This document shows positions 1 through 11,457 of a DNA stretch of 11,457 bases, one piece after another. Location of the stretch: the NCBI GenBank assembly GCA_964244895.1, contig CAXTKV010000096.1:1-11457 (forward strand). Reading direction: 5' to 3'. The translations under genes were made by a program, and so were the position numbers. The notes under the pieces were generated by a model, which saw only the letters and a list, made by a program, of their open reading frames with translations, was not told where the DNA came from and did not search any database. This DNA comes from an uncultured Deinococcales bacterium. Lineage in GTDB: Bacteria; Deinococcota; Deinococci; Deinococcales; JAAFIG01. The first letter of the stretch is position 1. Each line of letters opens with the position of its first letter.

Positions 1-860
1 CTGAGGGCGTCATCCTGTTTTTCAATCGGTTTCAAACCATCCGCGAACACCGCCTGCACGCCTTCGAGCAGGCCCGCGAAACGAATCGGGTGCAAGCGCG
101 CCAGGTGCGCCAGGAGCGCATCGAAAGCCTCCAGGGCTTTGACGCCGGGGTACGCCTCGAACGCCTCGACCAACCGCGCAGGCTCGAGCGGGCGCGGGGC
201 GGACAAACCTTCGCGGTGACGGTAATCCGGGCCGTCGATCCTGATGGCGAAAAAACGCGCAGCGATGCCCTGAATCTCGCGTTTGAAATCGTCCGCGTTG
301 AAACGCCCCTCACCCAACTGGCTGGGCAGCGTGTTCGAGGTGGCGACCACGCTGACGCCTTTGGGGATCAGTTCGCCCAGGAATCTCGAGACGACCAGCG
401 TGTTGCCCACGTCGTCCAGCTCGAATTCGTCGATGCACAAAAGTTTCGCGTTTGAGAAAGCTTCCACCGCCCGAATCATGCCGAGCGCGCCGATGGTGAA
501 GGTCAATTCGGCGAAACTGAGAAAGAATTTCTCACCCGTGAAGGCGTGCCAGGTGGCCGCCAACAGGTGCGTCTTGCCGACGCCGAAACCGCCATCCAGG
601 TACAGGCTGGGGCGAGGTTCTTTGCGTTTGAAGATGGCGAAACCGCGCTTTTCTGCCGCTTCCGCCACCAGTTTCTCGAGCCTCGTCCTGGCCTCGGATT
701 GGCTGGGAAATTGCGGGTTCGGAACGTAATTCTCGAAGCGCACACCCGCGAATCTCGGCGGTGGGCGGAAATGCTCGAGCAGGCGCTCCGGGTCTGCGGG
801 CGCATCGCGTTCGGTCAGCCGAACCACGCGTCCCTGCGAGGGTTGTTGCTGCATCCGCAC
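1..860 (-). CDS. zapE: AFG1/ZapE-family ATPase, 5' part; runs off the left edge of the window
   Basis: Not in the ORF track because it has no stop inside the window. Hand translation from GTG 860 / ATG 854 gives MQQQPSQGRVVRLTERDAPADPERLLEHFRPPPRF...LYLDGGFGVGKTHLL (Walker A)...LLCIDEFELDDVGNT (Walker B)...VVATSNTLPSQLGEGRFNADDFKREI...IDGPDYRHR...QDDAL, typical of ZapE. Confidence 0.92.
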   Translation of the reverse strand, partial: MRMQQQPSQGRVVRLTERDAPADPERLLEHFRPPPRFAGVRFENYVPNPQFPSQSEARTRLEKLVAEAAEKRGFAIFKRKEPRPSLYLDGGFGVGKTHLLAATWHAFTGEKFFLSFAELTFTIGALGMIRAVEAFSNAKLLCIDEFELDDVGNTLVVSRFLGELIPKGVSVVATSNTLPSQLGEGRFNADDFKREIQGIAARFFAIRIDGPDYRHREGLSAPRPLEPARLVEAFEAYPGVKALEAFDALLAHLARLHPIRFAGLLEGVQAVFADGLKPIEKQDDAL

Positions 861-894
861 CGTTTGAAGCTAACACGCGATCCATCAACGTCAA
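861..894 (-). promoter_or_regulatory. Putative sigma70-type leaderless promoter of zapE
   Basis: Minus strand reads TTGACG-N16-TAGCTT-N6-GTG(860), with a TGn extension before the -10. No Shine-Dalgarno is visible. Confidence 0.55.
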
Positions 895-939
895 GCCCGT
901 TTTGAGCACGGTTTCTCAGGCTTTCCAGCGAATTCGAGC

Positions 940-991
940 CTCGAGAACACCGTCCAGCACGCATTCTTAGATTCGTGTGCTGGACGGTGTC
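940..991. repeat. CTCGAG-anchored intergenic palindrome, copy 1 (zapE/kptA, divergent gap)
   Basis: CTCGAG-AACACCGT(946-953)-N30-ACGGTGTC(984-991). Perfect 14-bp stem 947-960/977-990. Confidence 0.92.
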
Positions 992-1018
992 GTTCGATTC
1001 GCTTACGCCAGCGCGCGC

Positions 1019-1054
1019 TTGCGCAAGGCTTAAAGATTCGCGCAGACTGACGAT
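1019..1054 (+). promoter_or_regulatory. Putative leaderless promoter of kptA
   Basis: TTGCGC-N18-CAGACT-N6-ATG(1055), with no SD. Same geometry as the zapE and amidohydrolase starts. Confidence 0.4.
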
Positions 1055-1612
1055 ATGGAAAAGCACCTCGTCACCATCAGCAAAACCTTATCCAAGCACC
1101 TGCGGCACGAACCCGAAGCCCTCGGCCTGACGCTCGAGCATGGGGGTTGGGTCAACGTGGACGCCTTACTTGAGGCATTTTCTCGCAAAGGCTTTGATCT
1201 GACACGCGAGGAACTCGAGGTCGTCGTCGCCTCGAGCGACAAGCAGCGTTTCAGCTTCGATGCCACCCGCAAACACATCCGCGCCAACCAGGGTCACAGC
1301 GTCGAAGTTGACCTCGGACTCGAGCCCATTGAACCGCCGGAAACGCTGTATCACGGCACGGCCAAAGCGAACCTGACTGCGATTCTCGAGACTGGATTGC
1401 GACGCATGAACCGCCACCACGTTCACCTGTCCCACGATACGGAAACTGCGATCCGCGTCGGGTCGAGGCACGGCGAGCCCGTCGTGCTGAAGGTGCATGC
1501 GAAAGCCATGAATGACGCCGGGTTCGCGTTCTACCGTTCAGAAAACGGCGTCTGGCTCACCGATGTCGTACCAGCTGAATACCTGAGCCTCGAGCAATTC
1601 CAAAATGTTTGA
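1055..1612 (+). CDS. kptA: RNA 2'-phosphotransferase, Tpt1/KptA family (NAD+-dependent)
   Basis: 185 aa with SKxLSxHLRH, GGWV, KQRF, IRANQGHS, LYHGT, RHHVHLS and NGVWLT motifs. Confidence 0.96.
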   Translation: MEKHLVTISKTLSKHLRHEPEALGLTLEHGGWVNVDALLEAFSRKGFDLTREELEVVVASSDKQRFSFDATRKHIRANQGHSVEVDLGLEPIEPPETLYHGTAKANLTAILETGLRRMNRHHVHLSHDTETAIRVGSRHGEPVVLKVHAKAMNDAGFAFYRSENGVWLTDVVPAEYLSLEQFQNV

Positions 1613-1629
1613 TCAGAAACGAGGTGAGC

Positions 1630-1899
1630 GTGCAGAACTACGTCTGCTTCAATTGCCGGACAACGGCCAGAAGACCCAACAACCATGTGGATGGACGACC
1701 CTCAGGCCAAGGCGATCACCCATGTCCAACCTGTGGTCGGCTTATGGTGCGAACCCATCCATCGACTGAAGCCCCGAAGAAACGCGACATCAAAAGTTGG
1801 CGAAACCTCCAGGAGTGGTACACGAACCCCATCAGATACGATCACTCTTCAGAAGGTGCATTGTTGCTTCGCAAATTGTTGAAGAGACGAACACAGTGA
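1630..1899 (+). CDS. Small hypothetical Zn-ribbon protein (CxxC...CPxCG)
   Basis: GAGGTG RBS at 1621-1626, then GTG 1630 (TTG 1609 is an alternative start). YVCFNCR...CPTCGRLM...APKKRDIKSW. About 53% GC by hand count over 1621-1920. Confidence 0.7.
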   Translation: MQNYVCFNCRTTARRPNNHVDGRPSGQGDHPCPTCGRLMVRTHPSTEAPKKRDIKSWRNLQEWYTNPIRYDHSSEGALLLRKLLKRRTQ

Positions 1900-1944
1900 G
1901 GGCTTTTCGTTTCGAGATTGCAGGTTTTCGAGTCTCGAGTAAGA

Positions 1945-1998
1945 CGAGAACACCGTCTGGTACGCGTCCTCGAGAATGCGTCTACGACGGTATTCTTA
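1945..1998. repeat. CTCGAG-anchored palindrome, copy 2 (convergent gap)
   Basis: CGAG-AACACCGT(1949-1956)-N30-ACGGTATT(1987-1994)-CTTA. CTCGAG 1969-1974 sits exactly on the dyad axis. The right end overlaps the TAA stop of the amidohydrolase. Confidence 0.88.
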
Positions 1999-3240
1999 AT
2001 CTCGTGACGCGATCCAAGCCATCGTCTTCGAGGCCAGTTTGTCAAAGGCTCGCACGCACAACTCGAGGTGGTCCTCTTTGGTGTCCTCGATCTTGTTATG
2101 GCTGATGCCGCGCAGGGATTGCACGAACATCATCACGGTCGGGATGCCCGCGCGTGAAACCTCCGCTGCGTCGTGCAGGGGGCCGCTGGGCAGCTTGTGG
2201 GACGTGGGAACCGTCTCGAGAATCGCGTCGTTGCAGAACCCGATCAAGTCCGGGTGGAACGGGATGGGCTGTATATCCCAGATGCGCGACCATTCCACGG
2301 TGCAGCCCTCCTCTTTTGCGAAGCGTTCGCTGGCCGCCACCGCTTCGCCGTACATCGCCGCCAGCGTGCCCGCGTCCAGGTCGCGCTGATCGAGCGTCAG
2401 CTCAGCGCGTCCCACGACCGCCGTAACGATGCCGGGAAAGGTCTTGAGGCTGCCGACCGTGCAGACGGCATCCTGGCGTTTTTTCGCAATTTCTCTGATC
2501 TCGAGCGCGAACTTCGCGCCCGCGCCCAATGCGTCCTTGCGCTGCGTCATCGGCGTGCTGCCCGAGTGCGCCTCCTGCCCGAAGAACGTGATCGCGTGCC
2601 GTTCGACACCTTTCGTGCCCAGCACCACGCCCAGAGGCAGATTCAGGCTCTCGAGCACCGGGCCTTGCTCGATGTGCAACTCGATGTAGGCCGCCGCGTT
2701 CCTTTTGGCCTTTCCAGCCTCGAGCGCTTTGTCCAGGTCAATCCCGAAGGGTTTCACCGCATCCTCGAGCCTGACGCCGTCCTTGTCCTTGCGGTCGCGC
2801 AGATCCGCCGGATCGAAGAATCCGGAGACGGCAGAAGACCCGAACAGCGACCGCCCGAACCTCGCGCCTTCCTCGTCGCACCAGTCCACCAGGCGCACCG
2901 TCACAGGTGGTTTGCCATCGTACTGATCATCGATGCGCCGCAGCACTTCCAGGCCCGCCAGCACGTTCAGGCAGCCGTCCAGCCAGCCGCCGTTCGGCAC
3001 GCTGTCCAGGTGACCGCCGATCCAGAGTTCGCGGTCTGAAGCACCCGGAAGCGTCACCCAGAGGTTGCCCGCCTCGTCCTGATCCGTGGTCACGGGCAAG
3101 CCCTCGAGTTTCGACTCGAAGAACGCTCGAGCTTTCGCCCAGGTGTCCGTGAAGGCCACGCGCTGCGCGCCGTTCTCGTCGCCCGTGAGTGCCCGCAATT
3201 CCTTGAGTTCCGCCACCGTGCGCTTGGGATCGAGGGTCAT
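1996..3240 (-). CDS. Zn-dependent M20 amidohydrolase, hydantoinase/carbamoylase family; probably beta-ureidopropionase (PydC/HyuC-like) from context
   Basis: GGHLDSVPNGGWLDG, DEEGARFG, ELHIEQGPVL, AHSGSTPM, SGPLHDA and GISHN motifs. Start placed at ATG 3240 (MTLDPKR). Divergent from preT-preA. Confidence 0.88.
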   Translation of the reverse strand: MTLDPKRTVAELKELRALTGDENGAQRVAFTDTWAKARAFFESKLEGLPVTTDQDEAGNLWVTLPGASDRELWIGGHLDSVPNGGWLDGCLNVLAGLEVLRRIDDQYDGKPPVTVRLVDWCDEEGARFGRSLFGSSAVSGFFDPADLRDRKDKDGVRLEDAVKPFGIDLDKALEAGKAKRNAAAYIELHIEQGPVLESLNLPLGVVLGTKGVERHAITFFGQEAHSGSTPMTQRKDALGAGAKFALEIREIAKKRQDAVCTVGSLKTFPGIVTAVVGRAELTLDQRDLDAGTLAAMYGEAVAASERFAKEEGCTVEWSRIWDIQPIPFHPDLIGFCNDAILETVPTSHKLPSGPLHDAAEVSRAGIPTVMMFVQSLRGISHNKIEDTKEDHLELCVRAFDKLASKTMAWIASRD

Positions 3241-3276
3241 GCGGTGATTCTGTTGCGCTCGGGGCACCCCTGTCAA
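3241..3276 (-). promoter_or_regulatory. Putative leaderless promoter of the amidohydrolase
   Basis: Minus strand reads TTGACA-N18-CAGAAT-N6-ATG(3240), with no SD. Confidence 0.6.
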
Positions 3277-3292
3277 CCTCGAGCACGATTTA

Positions 3293-3357
3293 CGAGAACA
3301 CCGTCCCAGACAGCGTTTCTCGAGATGCGAAGAATACCGTGCTGGACGGTATTCTTC
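3293..3357. repeat. CTCGAG-anchored palindrome, copy 3 (divergent gap), carrying an internal insertion
   Basis: AACACCGT(3297-3304)...CTCGAG(3319-3324)...ACGGTATT(3346-3353). The spacer is 41 nt, mainly because of an extra GAAGAATACC. Perfect 12-bp hairpin 3329-3340/3346-3357. Confidence 0.85.
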
Positions 3358-3402
3358 AGGATAGGTTTCTCAGGATCGCGCGTCCTGAACGATGTTCTCG
3401 CG

Positions 3403-3432
3403 TTGACAGGGCCGCGATAAAATCCGTATATT
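3403..3432 (+). promoter_or_regulatory. Putative sigma70 promoter of preTA
   Basis: TTGACA(3403-3408)-N18-TATATT(3427-3432), followed by a leader of about 110 nt and AAGGAGG at 3533-3539. Confidence 0.6.
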
Positions 3433-3549
3433 CGTTCAATCCACAGAGGTTAATTCGGCTCCCGCGAGAGTCCGAACCTCGGCCACAGCCCGCGCATCAC
3501 AGGCTCACGCTCGAGATTCGACCCACGCACTCAAGGAGGCGATCTTTTT

Positions 3550-4905
3550 TTGAGGCCCGACACGTCCAGACTGACACCCGCGCAACTCCAGGAAAACTTC
3601 AGCGAGTACCACGCGCCATTCACCGACCGCGAAGCCGTGATCGAGGCCACGCGCTGCCTGTTCTGCTACGACGCACCCTGCACGCACGCCTGCCCGACGC
3701 ACATCGACATCCCGAAATTCATCAAGAAAATCAGCACCCGGAACGTGCGCGGTTCGGCACGCGTGATCCTGGAGAGCAACTTTCTGGGTTCCACCTGCGC
3801 CCGCGTCTGCCCCGTCGAGGAACTCTGCGAGGGCGCGTGCGTGCTGGGTTCCGACCACAAACCGATCGCGATCGGACGCCTGCAACGCTACGCCACGGAT
3901 CACGTGCTGGACAACAAGATTGACCTGTTCAAACCCGGCCAACCGACCGAAAAGAAAGTGGTCGTGGTCGGCGCTGGCCCGGCTGGTTTATCCGCCGCCG
4001 CCGAACTCGCCAAGCTGGGCCATCGGGTCACGATCCTCGAGAAAAAACCGCTCGCGGGCGGGTTGTCCACCTACGGCATCGTCGTGTTCCGCGAACCTGT
4101 CGAGGTTTCCCTGGCTGAAGTCCAGATGGTCGAGCGCTTGGGCGTCGAGGTCAAAACCGGCGTGAGCGTCGGCGCGGACGTGAGCCTCGAGAGCCTGACC
4201 TCAAATTACGATGCAGTCTTCCTGGGCGTGGGCCTCGGGAAAGTCCCGACGCTCGCCATTCCCGGACAGAACCTGCCCGGCGTGGTGGACGGCATCGAGT
4301 TCATCGAGCGCACCAAAACCGACGCGCTCGAGACGATCCCCGTCGGCAACAAGGTCGCCGTGATCGGCGCGGGCAACACCGCCATAGACGCCGCCACCAT
4401 CGCCAAACGGTTGGGCGCGGAGCAGGTCGTGATGATCTACCGACGCACACCCGACCAGATGACCGCCTACGGTTTCGAGTACGAATTTGCCAAACGCGAG
4501 GGCATCGAATACCGCTTCCTGACCGCGCCAGTCAGCGTGCAGGGCGAATCCGGCGTGACGGGTCTCGAGTGCCTGAGAATGCAACTCGGAGCGCCCGACG
4601 CGTCCGGAAGACCGCGCCCGGAACCGATCCCCGGCTCGAATTTTATTCTCGAGTGCGACATGGTGATCAGCGCGATCGGGCAGGAAAAACAGACGAGCTT
4701 GGCTGAACAGTTGGGACTTGAGATCAAAAACGGTTACGTCGTGGTCGATCCCAAGACCTGCCAGACCTCGAGCGCGAAGGTGTTCGCCGGTGGCGACTGC
4801 GTGCGCTTGGTCGGTGACGCCAGCACCGTCATGGCCGTACAGGACGGCAAGATTGCGGCACGCGGCATTCACGCGATGCTCGAAACTGAGGTGCATCATG
4901 GCTGA
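3550..4905 (+). CDS. preT: NAD-dependent dihydropyrimidine dehydrogenase subunit PreT (GltD-like Fe-S flavoprotein)
   Basis: CLFCYDAPCTHACP and CARVCPxxxLCEGAC Fe-S motifs, GAGPAG and GAGNTAIDAA Rossmann motifs, VFAGGD. TTG start after AAGGAGG. Overlaps preA by 8 bp. Confidence 0.9.
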   Translation: MRPDTSRLTPAQLQENFSEYHAPFTDREAVIEATRCLFCYDAPCTHACPTHIDIPKFIKKISTRNVRGSARVILESNFLGSTCARVCPVEELCEGACVLGSDHKPIAIGRLQRYATDHVLDNKIDLFKPGQPTEKKVVVVGAGPAGLSAAAELAKLGHRVTILEKKPLAGGLSTYGIVVFREPVEVSLAEVQMVERLGVEVKTGVSVGADVSLESLTSNYDAVFLGVGLGKVPTLAIPGQNLPGVVDGIEFIERTKTDALETIPVGNKVAVIGAGNTAIDAATIAKRLGAEQVVMIYRRTPDQMTAYGFEYEFAKREGIEYRFLTAPVSVQGESGVTGLECLRMQLGAPDASGRPRPEPIPGSNFILECDMVISAIGQEKQTSLAEQLGLEIKNGYVVVDPKTCQTSSAKVFAGGDCVRLVGDASTVMAVQDGKIAARGIHAMLETEVHHG

Positions 4906-6274
4906 TCTGAGCATTGACTTTTGCGGCATCAAATCCCCGAACCCGTTCTGGCTGGCCTCCGCACCACCCACCAACAGCGGCGCACAAATCCACAAAGCGT
5001 TCGAGGCGGGCTGGGGCGGCGCGGTCTGGAAGACCATCGGCGCGCCCGTGCTGAACGTCTCCAACCGTTACGGCACGGTCAAGTACAACGGTCAGATCAT
5101 CGGGTTGAACAACGTCGAACTGATCTCGGATCGACCCCTCGAGATCAACCTGAAAGAAATCGCGGAGATCAAGAAACTCTGGCCCGACCGCGCCGTGATC
5201 GCCTCCGCGATGGTGGAAAGCACGCCCGAAGCCTGGAAGGAAATCATCCAGCAGATCGAGGACACCGGCGCGGACGGCATCGAACTGAACTACGGGTGCC
5301 CGCACGGCATGTCTGAGCGCGGCATGGGCGCGGCGGTCGGGCAAGTCCCCGAATACTGCGAGCAGATCACGTCGTGGGTCACGTCATACGCCAGCATCCC
5401 GGTAATTGTGAAACTCACGCCGAACGTCACGGACATCTCGTACCCGGCGCGGGCAGCGGTGGCGGGTGGGGCGCACGCGTTAAGCCTGATCAACACGATC
5501 AATTCGATCGTCGGCGTCAACCTGGACACCTTTGAACTCGAGCCGAACATCGGCGGCAAGGGCGGGCACGGTGGCTACGCGGGGCCAGCCGTCAAACCGA
5601 TCGCGCTGCACCTGATGTCGCAAGTGGCGCTGACCGACGCGGTCGTGGCGAAGAAACTGCCGATCTCCGGCATGGGCGGCATCATGAACTGGAAGGACGC
5701 CGCCGAGTTCTTGCTGATGGGCGCGACCAGTTTGCAGGTCTGCACCGCCGCGATGCTCTACGGCTACCGCATCGTGGAAGACATGATCGATGGCTTATCC
5801 AACTGGCTCGACGAGAAGGGCATCGGCAGCGTCAACCAGATCATCGGCGCGTCCTTGCCGCGCATCTCTGATTTCGGGGATTTCGACCTGGGCTTCAAGA
5901 CGGTCGCGCGGATCGACCAGAATTCGTGCATCCAGTGCGATCTGTGCTACATCGCCTGCAACGACACGGAACACCAGTGCATCGATTTGTACAAAGATGG
6001 CGAGTTGGTCATGCCCGGACACGACATCCGCGACAACGGCAGAATGACCGCCACCACAAGCCGACCCTTCCCCGTGATCCGCGAGCAGGACTGCGTGGGT
6101 TGCGACCTGTGCTACAACGTCTGCCCGGTCGAGGGCTGCATCGAGATGGTGCAGGTTCCATCCGGGCGCGAGGGCATGACCTGGCGGCAACTGAGCGCGG
6201 ATCGGCCAGAGGTCACGCAGGACTGGGAAGCCATGAAAGCCTTCCGCAAGGAAGTCGGCATCGACATTCACTGA
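4898..6274 (+). CDS. preA: NAD-dependent dihydropyrimidine dehydrogenase subunit PreA
   Basis: ATG 4898 after GAGGTG. NPFWLASAPPT, GWGGAVWKT, NYGCPHGMSERGMG, VKLTPN and LINT motifs, plus two C-terminal CxxCxxCxxxC ferredoxin motifs. Confidence 0.96.
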   Translation: MADLSIDFCGIKSPNPFWLASAPPTNSGAQIHKAFEAGWGGAVWKTIGAPVLNVSNRYGTVKYNGQIIGLNNVELISDRPLEINLKEIAEIKKLWPDRAVIASAMVESTPEAWKEIIQQIEDTGADGIELNYGCPHGMSERGMGAAVGQVPEYCEQITSWVTSYASIPVIVKLTPNVTDISYPARAAVAGGAHALSLINTINSIVGVNLDTFELEPNIGGKGGHGGYAGPAVKPIALHLMSQVALTDAVVAKKLPISGMGGIMNWKDAAEFLLMGATSLQVCTAAMLYGYRIVEDMIDGLSNWLDEKGIGSVNQIIGASLPRISDFGDFDLGFKTVARIDQNSCIQCDLCYIACNDTEHQCIDLYKDGELVMPGHDIRDNGRMTATTSRPFPVIREQDCVGCDLCYNVCPVEGCIEMVQVPSGREGMTWRQLSADRPEVTQDWEAMKAFRKEVGIDIH

Positions 6275-6283
6275 AGTAGAAGA

Positions 6284-6341
6284 CTCGAGAACACCGTCCA
6301 AGACGCAAATTTAATAACGTGTGCAGGACGGTGTTCTCGAG
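6284..6341. repeat. CTCGAG-anchored palindrome, copy 4 (preA/uma2, tandem gap); best-preserved ends
   Basis: Perfect 16-bp terminal inverted repeats CTCGAGAACACCGTCC (6284-6299) and GGACGGTGTTCTCGAG (6326-6341). 58 bp long, N30 core spacer, AT-rich centre. Confidence 0.95.
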
Positions 6342-6394
6342 CCGCAGCCCTGATCTACGCGATGCGATTACAATCTGAGCAACAGGAGGACGCC

Positions 6395-6988
6395 ATGACC
6401 TCGATACTCGAACCAACCCCCACGGATTCGACGGACATTGAACCGCACCGATTCACCGTCGCGGAATTTCAGAAAATGTACGAGCTCGAACTCGTGCCAC
6501 GGCGCAGCCAACTGATCCGAGGGGAGATTTACTTCATGGCCGCGATGGGCGCAGCGCATTCCGATGCACTTCGGATTCTCGGCAAGATGATGTACCGCGC
6601 GTTGATTGATCGTGCCGAAATCATCCAGCAATCTCCGATTACTATCTGGAACGACTCGCAACCCGAACCGGATTTTGGGCTGATCGAGCCGGATTACCCA
6701 GGCGGTGTCCCCAACGCCAAAGACGTGATGCTCACGATTGAAATCAGCGATTCCACCCTGAAGTTTGACCGTCAGAAGAAACTGCCCGACTACGCCCGTT
6801 CCAGCATTCCCGAATCATGGATTCTGAACTTGAACGAGCGCCATCTCGAGGTTTACCGCCAACCCGATGGCGAGCAGTATTTGCAAGTTCAGGTTGTGAA
6901 ACCCGAGACCTTGATTGCGCCATTGTTCGCGCCGGATGTGATGCTCGAGTGGTGGCACGCGCTCACGGAAGTCAAACCCGAAGAGTGA
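6395..6988 (+). CDS. Uma2/DUF820-family PD-(D/E)xK putative endonuclease
   Basis: AGGAGG then ATG 6395. HRFTVAEF, QLIRGEI, QPEPD, IEISDST and KLPDYARSSIPESWILNL motifs. A TACAAT -10 candidate lies at 6369-6374. Confidence 0.92.
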   Translation: MTSILEPTPTDSTDIEPHRFTVAEFQKMYELELVPRRSQLIRGEIYFMAAMGAAHSDALRILGKMMYRALIDRAEIIQQSPITIWNDSQPEPDFGLIEPDYPGGVPNAKDVMLTIEISDSTLKFDRQKKLPDYARSSIPESWILNLNERHLEVYRQPDGEQYLQVQVVKPETLIAPLFAPDVMLEWWHALTEVKPEE

Positions 6989-6994
6989 TGCACA

Positions 6995-7048
6995 AGAACA
7001 CCGTCCAGGACGTAGGGGAATATATGTGTATGGAACGGTGTTCTCGAG
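6995..7048. repeat. CTCGAG-anchored palindrome, copy 5 (uma2/hydrolase, tandem gap)
   Basis: AG-AACACCGT(6997-7004)-N30-ACGGTGTT(7035-7042)-CTCGAG. Confidence 0.9.
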
Positions 7049-7066
7049 ATAGGCGTGAGGATATTT

Positions 7067-8650
7067 ATGATCGACATTGAAAAATATAAGGCGCTCCGTG
7101 AAACTGGGAAAAATCCCACTGAGATTACTCAAATCGCCGAGCTAGACGGCCTAAACACCATCGAACGTATCAAAATGATTCGGGATATTTTTGATCTTTC
7201 GATCAAAGAAGCAAAAGAGATTATTGTTAATTCTGATTCTTCTGGTCGCTTTCAGGCCGCCCAAGATGCAATTATCGCGGCCTTTGAATTCGTTTCAAAA
7301 ACCTTTGAGCTGGAACAGAAAACTCGAGAGTTGATGGAGAAATACAAGATTCCAGGTCTCGCTATTGGCATTGTGAGCGATGGTGAGGAGTACACGTTTT
7401 GTGAAGGTGTGACGAGCGTAATGCATCCACTTCCGATCACTCCTGACACGCTTTTTCAGATCGGTTCGACCTCCAAGACGATCACGGGCACGATCATCAT
7501 GCGGCTGGTGCAGGACGGCAAGCTCGAGCTGGACGCGCCCATCAGAACGTACCTGCCCGACCTGAAACTCGCGGACGAGGACGTGGCGGCGAGGCTCACG
7601 CTGCGACACTGCCTGAACCACACGGGCGGTTGGGTCGGGGATTTCTTCGCGCCGTTCGGCGAGGGTGACGACGCGCTCAAACATTACGTGGCGGGCATTC
7701 ACACCATGCCGCAATTGACGCCTCTGGGGTCAATCTGGCATTACAACAACGCGGGTTTCGGCATCGCGGGCCGAGTGATCGAGGTCGTGACGGGCGAGAC
7801 GTATGAAGAGGCCGCGACGGACATGATCCTCGAGCCATTGGGCATGAACAAGTCCGTGTACTTCGCGGAGGACGCGATTCTGGAGCGTTCCGCCGTCGGG
7901 CATTACATGGACGATCAGGGTCAGGTACAACTCGCGCGCCCGTGGTCGTTGGGGCGGTCGCGCAACGCGATCGGCGGACTGAAATCGAGCGTGCTGGATC
8001 AGTTGAAGTACGCGCGTTTTCACCTCGGGGATGGTGCGCCGATCCTTTCGAGCGAGATGCTAAGCGCGATGCACGCGCCGACGATTGACGGCGCGCTGGG
8101 CAACCGTTTCGGCGTGACGTGGTTCGTGCGGGACGTGCCGGACGGTTCGGGCGGCGCGACTCGAGTGCTGTCTCACGGCGGCGCGACGAACGGGCAGATG
8201 AGCGCGTTTTTCATCGTGCCGGAGCGCAATTTTGGTTGCACGATCTTGACGAATGGCGAGAAAGGCGCGTTGTTGCACGGTGAGCTTTCGGGTTGGATTC
8301 AACAGGAATTTCTGGGATTGCAGGAACCCGCACCGCAGTTTCTCGAGCCGAGCGCCCAGGAACGCGAGGAACTGACGGGGCGCTACGTCGGGGCAGCATT
8401 CGGGACGGTGATTGAAATCAGCGTGCAGGACGGTGTTCTGGTGCGCCGAGTGATCCCAGGCGATACCTCGAGCGTCACCAGCACACCCGCGCCGCCACCG
8501 CCACCCGCGACTTGCGGTGCGCTAGATGGGGACGTGATTCAGGTGCTGGACACGGAATTGAAGGGCTTGAAGAACGAGTTCTTGCGCGATTCAAAAGGAT
8601 CAATCGTCTGGCTCAGGTCGGGCGGAAGGTTGTACGCGAGGCAAGCCTGA
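7067..8650 (+). CDS. Beta-lactamase-related (class C / AmpC-like) serine hydrolase with an extra N-terminal domain of about 85 aa
   Basis: GAGG then ATG 7067. FQIGSTSK (SxxK), WHYNN (YxN) and SHGG motifs. No signal peptide evident. The N-terminal part is about 41% GC. Confidence 0.88.
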   Translation: MIDIEKYKALRETGKNPTEITQIAELDGLNTIERIKMIRDIFDLSIKEAKEIIVNSDSSGRFQAAQDAIIAAFEFVSKTFELEQKTRELMEKYKIPGLAIGIVSDGEEYTFCEGVTSVMHPLPITPDTLFQIGSTSKTITGTIIMRLVQDGKLELDAPIRTYLPDLKLADEDVAARLTLRHCLNHTGGWVGDFFAPFGEGDDALKHYVAGIHTMPQLTPLGSIWHYNNAGFGIAGRVIEVVTGETYEEAATDMILEPLGMNKSVYFAEDAILERSAVGHYMDDQGQVQLARPWSLGRSRNAIGGLKSSVLDQLKYARFHLGDGAPILSSEMLSAMHAPTIDGALGNRFGVTWFVRDVPDGSGGATRVLSHGGATNGQMSAFFIVPERNFGCTILTNGEKGALLHGELSGWIQQEFLGLQEPAPQFLEPSAQEREELTGRYVGAAFGTVIEISVQDGVLVRRVIPGDTSSVTSTPAPPPPPATCGALDGDVIQVLDTELKGLKNEFLRDSKGSIVWLRSGGRLYARQA

Positions 8651-8658
8651 GCGTTAGA

Positions 8659-8716
8659 CTCGAGTAAACACCGTCCAGTACACGATCTCGAGAATGCGTG
8701 CTGAACGGTGTTCTTA
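8659..8716. repeat. CTCGAG-anchored palindrome, copy 6 (hydrolase/vapC, convergent gap)
   Basis: CTCGAG-TA-AACACCGT(8667-8674)-N30-ACGGTGTT(8705-8712)-CTTA. CTCGAG 8687-8692 sits on the dyad axis. The right end overlaps the vapC TAA. Confidence 0.92.
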
Positions 8717-9112
8717 TGCGAACCAGTTCTCGACCTTCAAACCGTCGACCCTCGAGAATTCCGCGACGTTGTTCGTGACCAAAGTGGCGTTCAAGGCCAG
8801 CACGTGCGCCGCGATCTGCAAGTCAAGCGGCCCGATCACGATGCCCGTTTGCTCGAGTTGGGCGCGCAGTTCGCCGTAACGGTGCGCGGCGTCCAGGCCA
8901 AAATCTACGATGGTCATCGGCTCGAGGAATTGCTCGAGGGCAGGTTGACTGCGCGATGACTTGCTTTTTTTCGCGCCGTAGCTGAGTTCCGCGACCACGA
9001 TGCTCGAGAGGCCGATGTCGTCCATGTCGTGCTCTGCGAAGCTCTCGGCGACATGCGGTGGGCGTTTGTTCATGATGTAAATGCAGATGTTCGTGTCCAG
9101 CATGAACTTCAC
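8714..9112 (-). CDS. vapC: VapC PIN-domain toxin
   Basis: MKFMLDTNICIY, SSIVVAEL, IGPLDLQIAAH and LVTNNVAEFSRV motifs. 132 aa, starting 2 bp after the vapB stop. Confidence 0.96.
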   Translation of the reverse strand: MKFMLDTNICIYIMNKRPPHVAESFAEHDMDDIGLSSIVVAELSYGAKKSKSSRSQPALEQFLEPMTIVDFGLDAAHRYGELRAQLEQTGIVIGPLDLQIAAHVLALNATLVTNNVAEFSRVDGLKVENWFA

Positions 9113-9114
9113 GT

Positions 9115-9357
9115 TCAGTCACCCCAGTCGCGCTCGTCGGATTTCTCGGGCTGGTTGCGTTCGATGGGTTCGTCGAGCACGGGCAGGCTGTCGTACCAGG
9201 TGCGCCAGAATTCGAGGCGCTGTTCTGGGCTTTTCGGGATCAGCAGCACGCCGTTGCCGACGCGCTTCACGTAGACTTCCGTGCCCTCGAATCGGTATTC
9301 TTTGGGCAAGCGCACGGCTTGGCTGCGGCCCGTCTGAAAAAGTTTTGCGGTGTCCAC
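9115..9357 (-). CDS. vapB: VapB antitoxin, AbrB/SpoVT (VagC-like) type
   Basis: AAAGGAG then GTG 9357. [21 protein letters not shown] motif with an acidic C-terminus. Confidence 0.93.
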
Positions 9358-9365
9358 GATCTCTC

Positions 9366-9396
9366 CTTTGGTAGCTATCAAAGAGTATATATCAAA
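9366..9396. promoter_or_regulatory. Putative vapBC operator/promoter
   Basis: Near-perfect palindrome CTTTGGTAGCTATCAAAG (9366-9383). Minus-strand TATACT -10 candidate at 9384-9389. TATCAAA is repeated at 9376 and 9390. Confidence 0.5.
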
Positions 9397-9409
9397 TCAG
9401 GAGGCACGT

Positions 9410-10789
9410 ATGGCGTTGCTGATCAAAAACGGCGAGATCATCACGGCGGATTCGCGTTACACGGCGGACATCTACGCCGAGGGCGACACCATCACCCGGA
9501 TCGGGCAGAACCTGGACGTTCCGATGGGCACGGAAGTCATCGACGCGAGCGGAAAGTACGTCTTTCCAGGCTTCATCGACCCGCACGTTCACATCTACTT
9601 GCCGTTCATGGCGACCTTCGCCAAGGACACGCACACCACGGGCAGTCAGGCCGCGCTGATCGGCGGCACGACCACCTACATCGAGATGTGCTGCCCGAAC
9701 CGCAACGACGACGCGCTGGAGGGCTACAACCACTGGAAATCCCTGGCAGACGGTCACAGCGCCTGCGATTACACGTTCCACATGTCGGTTACGAAGTTCG
9801 ACGACAAGACCGAAGCGCAACTGCGGGAAATCGTGGCGGACGGCATCTCGAGCTTCAAGATTTTCTTGTCGTACAAGAATTTCTTCGGCGTGGACGACAA
9901 CGAAATGTACCAGACGATGATGCTCGCCAAGGAACTGGGCGTGATCGTGACCGCGCACTGCGAGAACGCGGAACTGGTCGGGCAGTTGCAGCAGAAACTT
10001 TTATCCGAAGGCAAGACGGACTCGTCGTTCCACGAACCCAGCCGTCCCGAAACCGTCGAAACCGAGGGCACGCAGCGTTTTGCGACCTTCCTAGAAGCGA
10101 CGGGCGCGACCGGCTACATCGTGCATCTTTCCTGCGAACCCGCGCTCGAGCGGGCGATGGAGGCCAAATCGAAGGGCGTGCCGATCTACATCGAGAGCGT
10201 CATTCCACACTTCATGCTGGACAAGACTTACGCGGAGCGTCCCGGCGTGGAGGGCGCGAAGTACGTCATGAGCCCGCCGTTGCGCGACAAGCGCAACCAG
10301 AAACCCCTGTGGGACGCGCTGGCGGCGGGCTTCATCGATACGGTCGGCACGGATCACTGCCCGTTCGACGTGGCGCAGAAAGCCATGGGCAAGGACGCCT
10401 TCACCGCGATTCCGAACGGCATTCCGGCCATCGAGGATCGCATCAATCTGCTGTTCACCTACGGCGTCAGCCGGGGAAATCTGGACATTCACCGCTTCGT
10501 GGAGGCCGCCAGCACGAAAGCCGCAAAACTGTTCGGCTTGTTTCCGCGCAAGGGCACGATCGCGGTCGGGTCGGACGCGGATCTGGTGATTTACGATCCC
10601 AATTACCGCGGCGTGATCTCGAGCAAAACGCAGCGCGTCAACAACGATTACAACGGCTTCGAGGGCATGGAAATCGATGGCAAGCCCAGCGTCGTGACCG
10701 TGCGCGGTCAGGTCGCGGTGCAGGACGGAAAATTCGTGGGCGACCCGGCCAGAGGGCAGCTTTTACGTCGCGAGCCGCAGCATTTCTGA
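9410..10789 (+). CDS. hydA: Dihydropyrimidinase (D-hydantoinase)
   Basis: AGGAGG then ATG 9410. PGFIDPHVH, GGTTT, SSFKIF (carboxylated Lys), AHCEN, VHLS, MSPPLR, GTDHCPF and GSDADLVI motifs. Confidence 0.96.
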   Translation: MALLIKNGEIITADSRYTADIYAEGDTITRIGQNLDVPMGTEVIDASGKYVFPGFIDPHVHIYLPFMATFAKDTHTTGSQAALIGGTTTYIEMCCPNRNDDALEGYNHWKSLADGHSACDYTFHMSVTKFDDKTEAQLREIVADGISSFKIFLSYKNFFGVDDNEMYQTMMLAKELGVIVTAHCENAELVGQLQQKLLSEGKTDSSFHEPSRPETVETEGTQRFATFLEATGATGYIVHLSCEPALERAMEAKSKGVPIYIESVIPHFMLDKTYAERPGVEGAKYVMSPPLRDKRNQKPLWDALAAGFIDTVGTDHCPFDVAQKAMGKDAFTAIPNGIPAIEDRINLLFTYGVSRGNLDIHRFVEAASTKAAKLFGLFPRKGTIAVGSDADLVIYDPNYRGVISSKTQRVNNDYNGFEGMEIDGKPSVVTVRGQVAVQDGKFVGDPARGQLLRREPQHF

Positions 10790-10802
10790 ACGGAGATCAT
10801 TG

Positions 10803-11432
10803 ATGCCTGAATCCTCGAGCTACCTCGTGTTCGTGCTGGCCGCGCTCGCGCTGCTGTTGGTTCCTGGCCCGAGCGTCTTGTACATCGTCACGCGCAGCGT
10901 CTCTCAGGGGCGCGTGGCGGGCATCATCAGCGTGCTGGGCATCCAGTGCGGGGCGCTCGGGCACGTGGCGGCGGCGACGCTGGGATTGTCGGCCATTCTG
11001 CTCTCGAGCGCGCTGGCGTTCAACCTGGTCAAGTACGCGGGTGCGGCCTACCTGATTTACATGGGCGTGCAGCAGTGGCGCTCGAAGGCCAGACCTGAAC
11101 AGTTCGAGATGAAACCCGAAGCGCTTTCACGCGTGTTCTCGCAAGGTTTCGTGGTCAACCTGTTCAACCCGAAAACCGCGCTGTTCTTCCTGGCGTTTCT
11201 GCCGCAATTCGTGAACCCCGCCAGAGGTTCCGTGTCCGCGCAATTCCTGATTCTGGGCTTGACCTTCGTGGGTTTGGCGTCGGTCACCGACAGCCTGTAC
11301 GCGCTCCTCTCGAGCGCCATCGGTGGCTGGTTGAAAAGCAACGAGCGCTTCCAGCGTTCCCAGAAGTACGTCACGGGCGGCGTCTACGTGGGCTTGGGCG
11401 TGACGGCGGCGTTGACTGGAAGTCACAAGTAG
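10803..11432 (+). CDS. LysE/RhtB-family translocator
   Basis: GGAG then ATG 10803. PGP, G/AAYLIYMG and NPKTALFF motifs, hydrophobic helices, about 209 aa. Confidence 0.93.
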   Translation: MPESSSYLVFVLAALALLLVPGPSVLYIVTRSVSQGRVAGIISVLGIQCGALGHVAAATLGLSAILLSSALAFNLVKYAGAAYLIYMGVQQWRSKARPEQFEMKPEALSRVFSQGFVVNLFNPKTALFFLAFLPQFVNPARGSVSAQFLILGLTFVGLASVTDSLYALLSSAIGGWLKSNERFQRSQKYVTGGVYVGLGVTAALTGSHK

Positions 11433-11457
11433 TACAACTGGAAGTCACAAGTAGTAC
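11415..11457 (+). repeat. 22-bp tandem duplication covering the LysE stop codon, cut by the window end
   Basis: ACTGGAAGTCACAAGTAGTACA (11415-11436) is followed directly by ACTGGAAGTCACAAGTAGTAC (11437-11457). Confidence 0.9.

Follow-up and report, generated by a model that had tools for sequence, protein, structure and literature searches.

Helically spaced pairs of a CGT-N5-ACG box amplified in a Deinococcales genome: candidate docking sites for a DNA-bending protein

The closest described counterparts of the element treated here are the sites of DNA-bending proteins and several kinds of dispersed repeats. In Escherichia coli, IHF binds the R1-R5M gap of the origin beside the unwinding element, and HU is described as binding the corresponding oriC gap in E. 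coli and Thermotoga maritima when DnaA is present (PMC10325909). The kinks introduced by IHF lie 9 bp apart (PMC8421141), IHF pins the tips of plectonemes in simulations (PMC9519438), and in the accounts of these three sources IHF is reported from proteobacteria, nitrospirae and nitrospinae only (PMC10325909; PMC8421141; PMC9519438). Among the repeats, the repetitive extragenic palindromic (REP) elements with their REPIN and BIME forms comprise GTAG families, described with a cognate RAYT/Y1 gene flanked by repeats, and CGTC families, described without RAYT (PMC3733652). Gyrase prefers BIME-2 and is reported to recognise a 130-bp motif with 10.75-bp periodic flanks placed symmetrically about a central cleavage segment (PMC6379681). 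Here, we analyze an element first seen in an 11,457-nt stretch of DNA from an uncultured Deinococcales bacterium (contig CAXTKV010000096.1 of assembly GCA_964244895.1, positions 1 to 11,457; hereafter the window), which a preliminary description had presented as a family of intergenic palindromes of fixed length, and which consists genome-wide of inverted pairs of a 21-bp box. These elements are probably amplified IHF-like bending sites, that is, candidate docking pairs on duplex DNA for a bending protein, most plausibly a dimer of the HU family.

The box comprises a core, CGT-N5-ACG, one AACAC flank and one A/T-rich flank, and the unit AACAC-CGT-N5-ACG is either completed to a full palindrome or continued by C, then A or G, and an A/T tract. 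A matrix scan of the genome yielded 4,558 strand matches at 12 bits or more, compared with 12 in the reversed control, and at this threshold 4,009 boxes are arranged into 2,549 elements (1,434 pairs, 1,102 singles and 13 triples). The spacing of the pairs is quantised: box centres are 25 bp apart in 724 pairs, 26 bp in 105, 35 bp in 358 and 36 bp in 145, which together account for 1,332 of the 1,434 pairs, while seven pairs fall at 27-29 bp and none at 32-33 bp. The length classes thus differ by 10-11 bp, i.e. by one helical turn, with hardly anything in between, which is the mark of helical phase. Expressed as the spacer between arms, the genome-wide peak at 30 nt that had been proposed as a check is present (507 sites), accompanied by peaks at 5 nt (293), 31 nt (83), 40 nt (118) and 41 nt (83), and every other spacer between 0 and 119 nt occurs at most 12 times. 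Which spacing is preferred depends on which flanks face each other. Many single boxes have a decayed partner at the pair offsets, since 193 of 1,072 have a weak partner at 25/26 bp and 227 at 35/36 bp. The copies are nearly all distinct (721 of 724 in the 25-bp class and 358 of 358 in the 35-bp class).

Gene positions were taken from our own simple gene caller, which predicted 4,597 genes and 81% coding DNA. Only 194 of 3,709 boxes scoring at least 14 bits lie within genes, and about 95% are therefore extragenic. Elements occupy 475 of 626 convergent gaps (76%), 1,341 of 2,519 co-directional gaps (53%) and 309 of 649 divergent gaps (48%), at a median distance of about 21 nt from the stop codon and about 100 nt from the start codon. 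The polarity of the box is not oriented relative to transcription (206 vs 201). Within coding DNA, the core is 1.5- to 2.9-fold more frequent than in codon shuffles, compared with 0.84 to 1.19 for other spacer lengths.

Outside the pairs, AA/TT dinucleotides oscillate with a period of about 11.5 bp whose phase is set by the box centre; this holds for coding as well as non-coding flanks, and the phase is identical for both spacing classes. The power of this periodicity is 421, as opposed to 8-28 after jitter, 17 when anchored on CTCGAG and 7 when anchored on stop codons, and the signal fades by about 90-100 bp. A general 11.2-bp periodicity is found in this genome and likewise in some sister genera; the special feature is the phase-locking to the box, not periodicity as such. 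The elements are also spread evenly: outside islands, the gaps between them have a coefficient of variation (CV) of 0.585 against 0.697 ± 0.016 in 300 shuffles matched for gap class and length, with islands over 7 kb left out. The more distant the next gene gap, the more often a gap is occupied (51% rising to 88%). Element-free stretches of 17-45 kb (on contigs C5, C15, C36, C50 and C70) contain a plasmid replication initiator, BREX/ABC-3C systems and sugar and phenylacetate (paa) clusters, as judged from 56 of 115 island proteins scanned, and they keep CTCGAG, the commonest hexamer of the genome, at 2.7-5.5 per kb. These stretches may be foreign DNA or contamination of the bin.

The core is not confined to the amplified pairs. 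The origins downstream of dnaA of 27 genomes were scored with the matrix from this genome only, and 25 of them had DnaA boxes. In 18 of these 25, the top-scoring site precedes by 12-13 nt the last DnaA box, the one adjacent to the unwinding element. By family (labelled f1 to f5), this position is found in 5/6 f1, 4/5 f2, 5/6 f3, 2/3 f4 and 2/5 f5 origins; f3 appears to be the Deinococcus-like family, to judge from its lysine-rich HU tails (PMC6300522). Upstream of hu genes, cores with p<0.05 are present in 6/6 f3 and 4/7 f2 genomes, and in 12 of the 16 f1 hu-b promoters with sequence, a loose core is located exactly 23 nt before the -35 hexamer (21 nt in two, 8-9 nt in two). Cores are also found in the gyrA promoters of this genome (G000) and of a second one (G001), and one CRISPR leader of this genome has a core; in relatives, presence of the word in CRISPR leaders was not confirmed, the G006 matches that were checked belonging to a different dispersed repeat. 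Because the genomes used for origins and promoters are kin and not independent, no joint p-value is claimed. The core is older than the amplification: a low-copy site across the order was probably multiplied in one lineage. No description of the element or of the hu-promoter motif was found in searches of an open-access library.

These features support the suggestion of the preliminary description that a dimeric protein recognises the element, in that spacing is quantised, flanks are phased and a copy is conserved in origins and hu promoters. The binder is probably HU, because the slot occupied in origins is that of HU, the hu promoters carry the same word and the 9 bp bounded by the paired CpG steps of the core match the distance between IHF kinks cited above, and we infer that it bends DNA. 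Each box would dock a sequence-preferring bending protein on double-stranded DNA, acting like E. coli IHF, and two dimers bound half-integral turns apart (about 2.4 or 3.4 turns) would generate a defined double bend that runs on into about 90 bp of curved DNA per side. Such a double bend could hold the apex of a supercoiled loop in place at intervals of about 2 kb, for the most part immediately downstream of genes, where supercoils accumulate through transcription; the pinning of plectoneme tips by IHF in simulations suggests this effect for a phased pair with curved flanks (PMC9519438). Historically, the old low-copy site would have been multiplied in this lineage by a copying process that is no longer visible, after which selection may have kept the core and the spacing while the centres drifted and CTCGAG came in as a background of the whole family.

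The comparison with IHF sites and the HU-bound oriC interspace covers both likenesses and differences. A copy in the gap by the DnaA box proximal to the unwinding element, symmetric steps 9 bp apart, asymmetry between a side with a defined word and a side with an A/T tract, and the expected pinning of plectoneme tips are shared (PMC10325909; PMC8421141; PMC9519438). Unlike in IHF sites, the word is a GC-rich dyad, the IHF consensus WATCARNNNNTTR (PMC9519438) is not matched, and about 4,000 copies occur in helically quantised pairs. In its proposed working the element resembles an IHF site, and in its placement the REP/BIME dimers, yet it lacks defining features of REP, MITE (miniature inverted-repeat transposable element), attC, terminator and IHF consensus alike. 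In a further-reaching form, in our judgement somewhat less likely than not, a Deinococcales HU (or HU heterodimer) would be a sequence-reading, IHF-like bender with the site CGT-N5-ACG, present singly at origins and its own promoters across the order, and one lineage would have written about 2,500 phased pairs of it into the chromosome, encoding in sequence a lattice by which loop tips are held at intervals of about 2 kb. Such a lattice would be comparable to nucleosome-positioning signals. If the docking-site reading is true, it would name the missing IHF-equivalent site in a phylum reported without IHF, and would be a natural case of chromosome folding written in sequence at the 2-kb scale, with thousands of variants to define the rules for core, flank and spacing. 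It would also bear on the old question of the purpose of REP-like repeats, as the protein-site reading can here be separated from RNA and mobile-element readings.

Several observations weigh against docking by HU. What is observed are the geometry, the phased flanks, the even spread and the conserved single copies, and binding of HU to the box is predicted from them. According to published descriptions, HU has no sequence specificity in its binding (PMC10325909), so that the word kept in origins may instead be a mark of bendable DNA or belong to a different protein. All three HU paralogues encoded here are of an ordinary kind and occur also in sister genera that show no amplification. A 35-bp footprint of the IHF type would overlap at 25-bp spacing, and the arm covariation of the 25-bp class goes beyond what duplex binding alone explains. 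By score alone, the origin core reaches p<0.05 in only 9 of 25 origins, the hu upstream cores do so in only 3/15 f1, 2/6 f5 and 0/3 f4 genomes, and no clear core was seen upstream of gyrA in three further genomes (G003, G004 and G006) or in 5/5 f2/f3 genomes; kinship among the genomes further weakens these single-core statistics. The even spread emerges only when islands over 7 kb are left out, since with islands included the CV lies above the null (0.89 vs 0.74). In a ranking by codon bias, one HU paralogue stands near the top, and no lineage-specific binder was noticed among the genes listed. Upstream of a third HU paralogue (C10:5198-5500), which is eighth in the ranking by high-expression codon bias, there are a pair and additional cores, and another pair lies downstream of it.

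Among the other explanations, a selfish repeat of the REP/REPIN or MITE type, spread by a transposase that has since disappeared or escaped assembly and now decaying as functionless DNA, with the two classes as two founder subfamilies, is unlikely. The element resembles the REP/REPIN/BIME families in being a short extragenic palindromic dimer near 3' ends that is enriched in convergent gaps, confined to one lineage and asymmetric on its inner side, as described for REP heterodimers (PMC3733652); the assembly is 91% complete and could lack a transposase, and close neighbours are in slight excess over simulation (135 of 724 copies within 3 changes vs 46-57). Yet no Y1/RAYT (PF01797, 0 matches), IS110 (PF02371, 0) or open reading frame (ORF) with a HUH motif (0) was found in this assembly, the genes with most flanking boxes look by eye like ordinary metabolic and housekeeping genes, and target-site duplications are absent (in about 500 offset/length tests per class, z reached 2.7 at most). 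With few exceptions the copies are unique, no empty site was seen at the 6 sites bridged by a relative of about 10% divergence, and the centres are scrambled while the lengths are not; neutral decay would give neither phased flanks nor even spacing nor a copy in the origin. The REP anatomy also differs, given that no unpaired GTAG or CGTC tag precedes a 5-13 bp stem and CGTC lies inside the paired arm. As far as tested, against Rfam, plasmid and phage records and the GTAG/CGTC REP anatomy, no match to a catalogued family was found, in line with the preliminary description, which recognised none. The SNRs of Deinococcus radiodurans are likewise dispersed non-coding repeats of the same order, and at 60-215 bp, with the copy number of SNR4 varying between strains (PMC11276467), they differ by description from the element, whose paired pattern has only chance-level matches in f3 genomes (see below). 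Thousands of copies, some in genes and none in the plasmid-like and defence islands, would also be expected of a self-DNA tag resembling an uptake sequence, and a switch of gene order at the element in two metagenome contigs together with arm covariation in the 25-bp class could point to an attC-like recombination site processed as a folded single strand. This explanation is the least probable of those weighed: nearly all boxes are extragenic and without orientation to transcription, the elements flank core genes in all orientations and not cassette arrays, and 9 of 11 matches to tyrosine recombinases (integrases) lie in element-free islands. An integron attC follows co-oriented cassettes next to the integron integrase, and the element, which lies in divergent and convergent gaps of core genes, was rejected as such a site.

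That the elements serve, as RNA hairpins at the 3' ends of genes, to terminate transcription or to stabilise mRNA is very unlikely, despite the bias towards 3' ends and convergent gaps and the good single-stranded folding of copies 1 and 4 of the window (z -6.2 and -6.6, DNA parameters). The N5 stretches of the two arms are identical in 277 of 723 25-bp elements vs 134 expected, in 17 of 105 26-bp elements vs 7, in 46 of 358 35-bp elements vs 35 and in 12 of 145 36-bp elements vs 11, and this covariation is strongest in the convergent gaps of the 25-bp class (105 of 211 vs 55 expected); it nevertheless persists in divergent gaps (21 of 64 vs 10 expected), and the 35/36 classes show hardly any. 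Read in sense orientation, the 265 stop-proximal 25-bp elements contain as many G.U as A.C mismatches (216 vs 217; p=0.016 in one of 16 strata), a T-rich tail follows only 43 of 846 pairs (28 on the control side), and the length of an RNA loop need not step by 10 bp. A search of Rfam returned nothing above the gathering score (best 23 bits, a chance match to mir-299 with a 67-bit cut-off). Single palindromic boxes followed by T runs occur directly after several tRNA genes (C118, C48, C31, C159, C4, C51 and C102). The hairpin reading does not explain the family, and a few of these single boxes look like terminators. Similarly, the earlier idea of a hairpin-processing enzyme finds little support, as arm covariation is restricted to the 25/26-bp classes and the inner positions +7 to +9 avoid pairing (z about -6 to -8); repair of hairpins or cruciforms may symmetrise the short class. 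As improbable as the RNA hairpin is a docking site for gyrase like the BIME-2 of E. coli, in which the pair would form the gate segment at the centre and the GyrA C-terminal domains would wrap the periodic flanks. The flanks are of similar reach, the placement downstream of genes and in convergent gaps agrees, and there is one gyrA, a second type II A-subunit having been looked for and not found. Here, however, the flank phase follows the box and not the dyad of the pair (it is the same although the dyads of the classes differ by 5 bp), the period is about 11.5 bp, the core is near-invariant whereas the gyrase motif is degenerate, and GyrA is an ordinary protein of 815 aa. A single core in origins fits a bending protein better, and gyrase may use the curved flanks secondarily (PMC6379681).

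Among the other genomes of the order that were scanned, the amplification was not encountered. The host is a member of the Deinococcota: its RpoB reaches 1,710 bits against the top solved structure, the leading entries being Thermus, and 1,251 bits against the first group without close relationship. This genome is the sole one of its genus in the set, and its RpoB is 82-87% identical to that of sister genera. The paired pattern has 0-2 chance matches in each of 150 genomes from the order, among them all 18 members of its own family, compared with 441 here, and likewise 0-2 matches, at chance level, in each of 36 f3 genomes; viral contigs gave 0 matches and plasmid and phage collections none. 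A scan of metagenomes returned 6 loci, of which four belong to this family in related organisms, and two (L011 and L013) are long perfect hairpins without the family features and were dropped. The four related contigs (proteins 49-96% identical) carry six elements, all of which have a counterpart beside the orthologous gene here, four at an aligned position and two shifted; because the loci were chosen by pattern and over half of all gaps are occupied, this keeping of place is modest evidence. Arms are kept between these elements and their counterparts and centres have diverged, and two of the contigs change gene order at an element, the other neighbour there having none. None of six further element sites crossed by about 10% diverged contigs of one sequencing run is empty or has lost length: four align through, and at the other two the DNA does not align but is of nearly equal length (89 vs 91 and 110 vs 114 nt). 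Contigs matched to the window came from a mixture of many organisms and were used only for one bridging record. A scan of species genomes (42 of 64 parts) found three Blastocatellia records, each with one look-alike after alaS and no family. In this look-alike pair (L006-L008, 1501-1553), the spacing is 31-32, the arms are kept and the N5 is not complementary. As far as found, the amplification appears restricted to this lineage.

In the window, the six copies were located where the preliminary description had placed them, five with 30 nt between the arms (i.e. box centres 25 bp apart) and with the five centre hexamers as given, and CTCGAG indeed lies on the dyad of copies 2 and 6. The remaining copy (element 3, at 3293) has its centres 36 bp apart, equivalent to 41 nt between arms, and thereby belongs to the second length class, which had been overlooked together with a weak third box at 3386 and a single box within a gene at 8427. 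The features of the window are the following:

940-945: CTCGAG beside element 1, background
946..991: element 1, inverted box pair, centres 956/981, 25-bp class, between divergent zapE-like and kptA (RNA 2'-phosphotransferase) genes
1949..1994: element 2, box pair, centres 1959/1984, 25-bp class, ending at the amidohydrolase stop codon; central CTCGAG at 1969-1974
3297..3353: element 3, box pair, centres 3307/3343, 36-bp class, between divergent amidohydrolase and preT-like genes; its right box is fully palindromic
3376..3396 (minus strand): third box, weak (14.3 bits), centre 3386, 43 bp outside element 3
6290..6335: element 4, box pair, centres 6300/6325, 25-bp class, 15 nt past the preA stop; CTCGAG on both outer sides (6284-6289 and 6336-6341)
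6997..7042: element 5, box pair, centres 7007/7032, 25-bp class, 8 nt past the stop of the ORF 6395-6988
8417..8437 (minus strand): single strong box, centre 8427, within the serine-hydrolase (beta-lactamase-like) gene, 30.5 bits
8667..8712: element 6, box pair, centres 8677/8702, 25-bp class, between convergent serine-hydrolase and vapC genes

Genome-wide, neighbouring boxes on the outer side show a distance peak at 41-43 bp. The genes of the window comprise a pyrimidine-degradation cluster, kptA, the zapE-like gene, the serine hydrolase and vapBC, and none of the 12 window proteins scanned is a mobilising enzyme, in agreement with the earlier observation.

The scaffold of three CTCGAG words separated by 20 nt, on which the family had been thought to be built, is a composite of different copies. 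None of 723 elements of the 25-bp class carries all three words, 41 have CTCGAG on the dyad and 431 have none near any of the three places; both outer words are present in 7 elements, where about 17 would be expected from the single-side counts of 115 and 108. The perfect 58-bp palindrome assembled from several copies is found in none of the 723 (the closest has 3 of 29 pairs mismatched), and only one equally spaced CTCGAG triple at 26 bp exists genome-wide. No hexamer of this genome is more frequent than CTCGAG, which has 21,883 sites (4.3 per kb) and within genes exceeds codon shuffles 4.75-fold; it is also the commonest, at 4.6-6.7 per kb, in samples of four sister genera without the element (loci L034-L093). 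CTCGAG is a HIP-like word of the whole family and a background to the element. A hyper-abundant palindrome that overlaps a small dispersed repeat recalls HIP1 of cyanobacteria, into which the SDR5 module inserts (PMC4390886); in contrast to that case, CTCGAG is needed at no position here, a duplication signature is absent and sister genera own the hexamer without the element.

Further repeats and arrays were noted alongside the family. A separate, ordinary GTAG-tagged REP family is present in this genome (C64 at about 9422, C6, C17, C25 and others), with 62 matches to a strict pattern, of which 51 have a box no more than 200 bp away, and in the 91% complete assembly no RAYT was found for these true GTAG REPs either. 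In the sister genus represented by G006, a different dispersed repeat of about 90 bp (L037:13904, L038:6128 and 15817, L042:17145, L046:3017) has short inverted ends and one internal CGT-N5-ACG core; it is MITE-like and carries the same host site. The terminator-shaped hairpins that follow tRNA genes enclose the core and have co-varying arms, and a big tRNA gene array (C151:8015-11705, about 25 calls in 3.7 kb) has several elements of the 26-bp class between its tRNA genes. A similar array in a sister genus (L058, G003) has no box in those 3' flanks that were inspected. Within the window, the vapBC toxin-antitoxin pair (8714-9357, minus strand) and other small genes split the pyrimidine-degradation cluster between preA and the dihydropyrimidinase gene. 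Directly after element 5, the segment 7055-7330, the 5' part of an ORF running into the serine-hydrolase gene, is markedly AT-rich, was not called coding by our gene model and is possibly foreign or fused.

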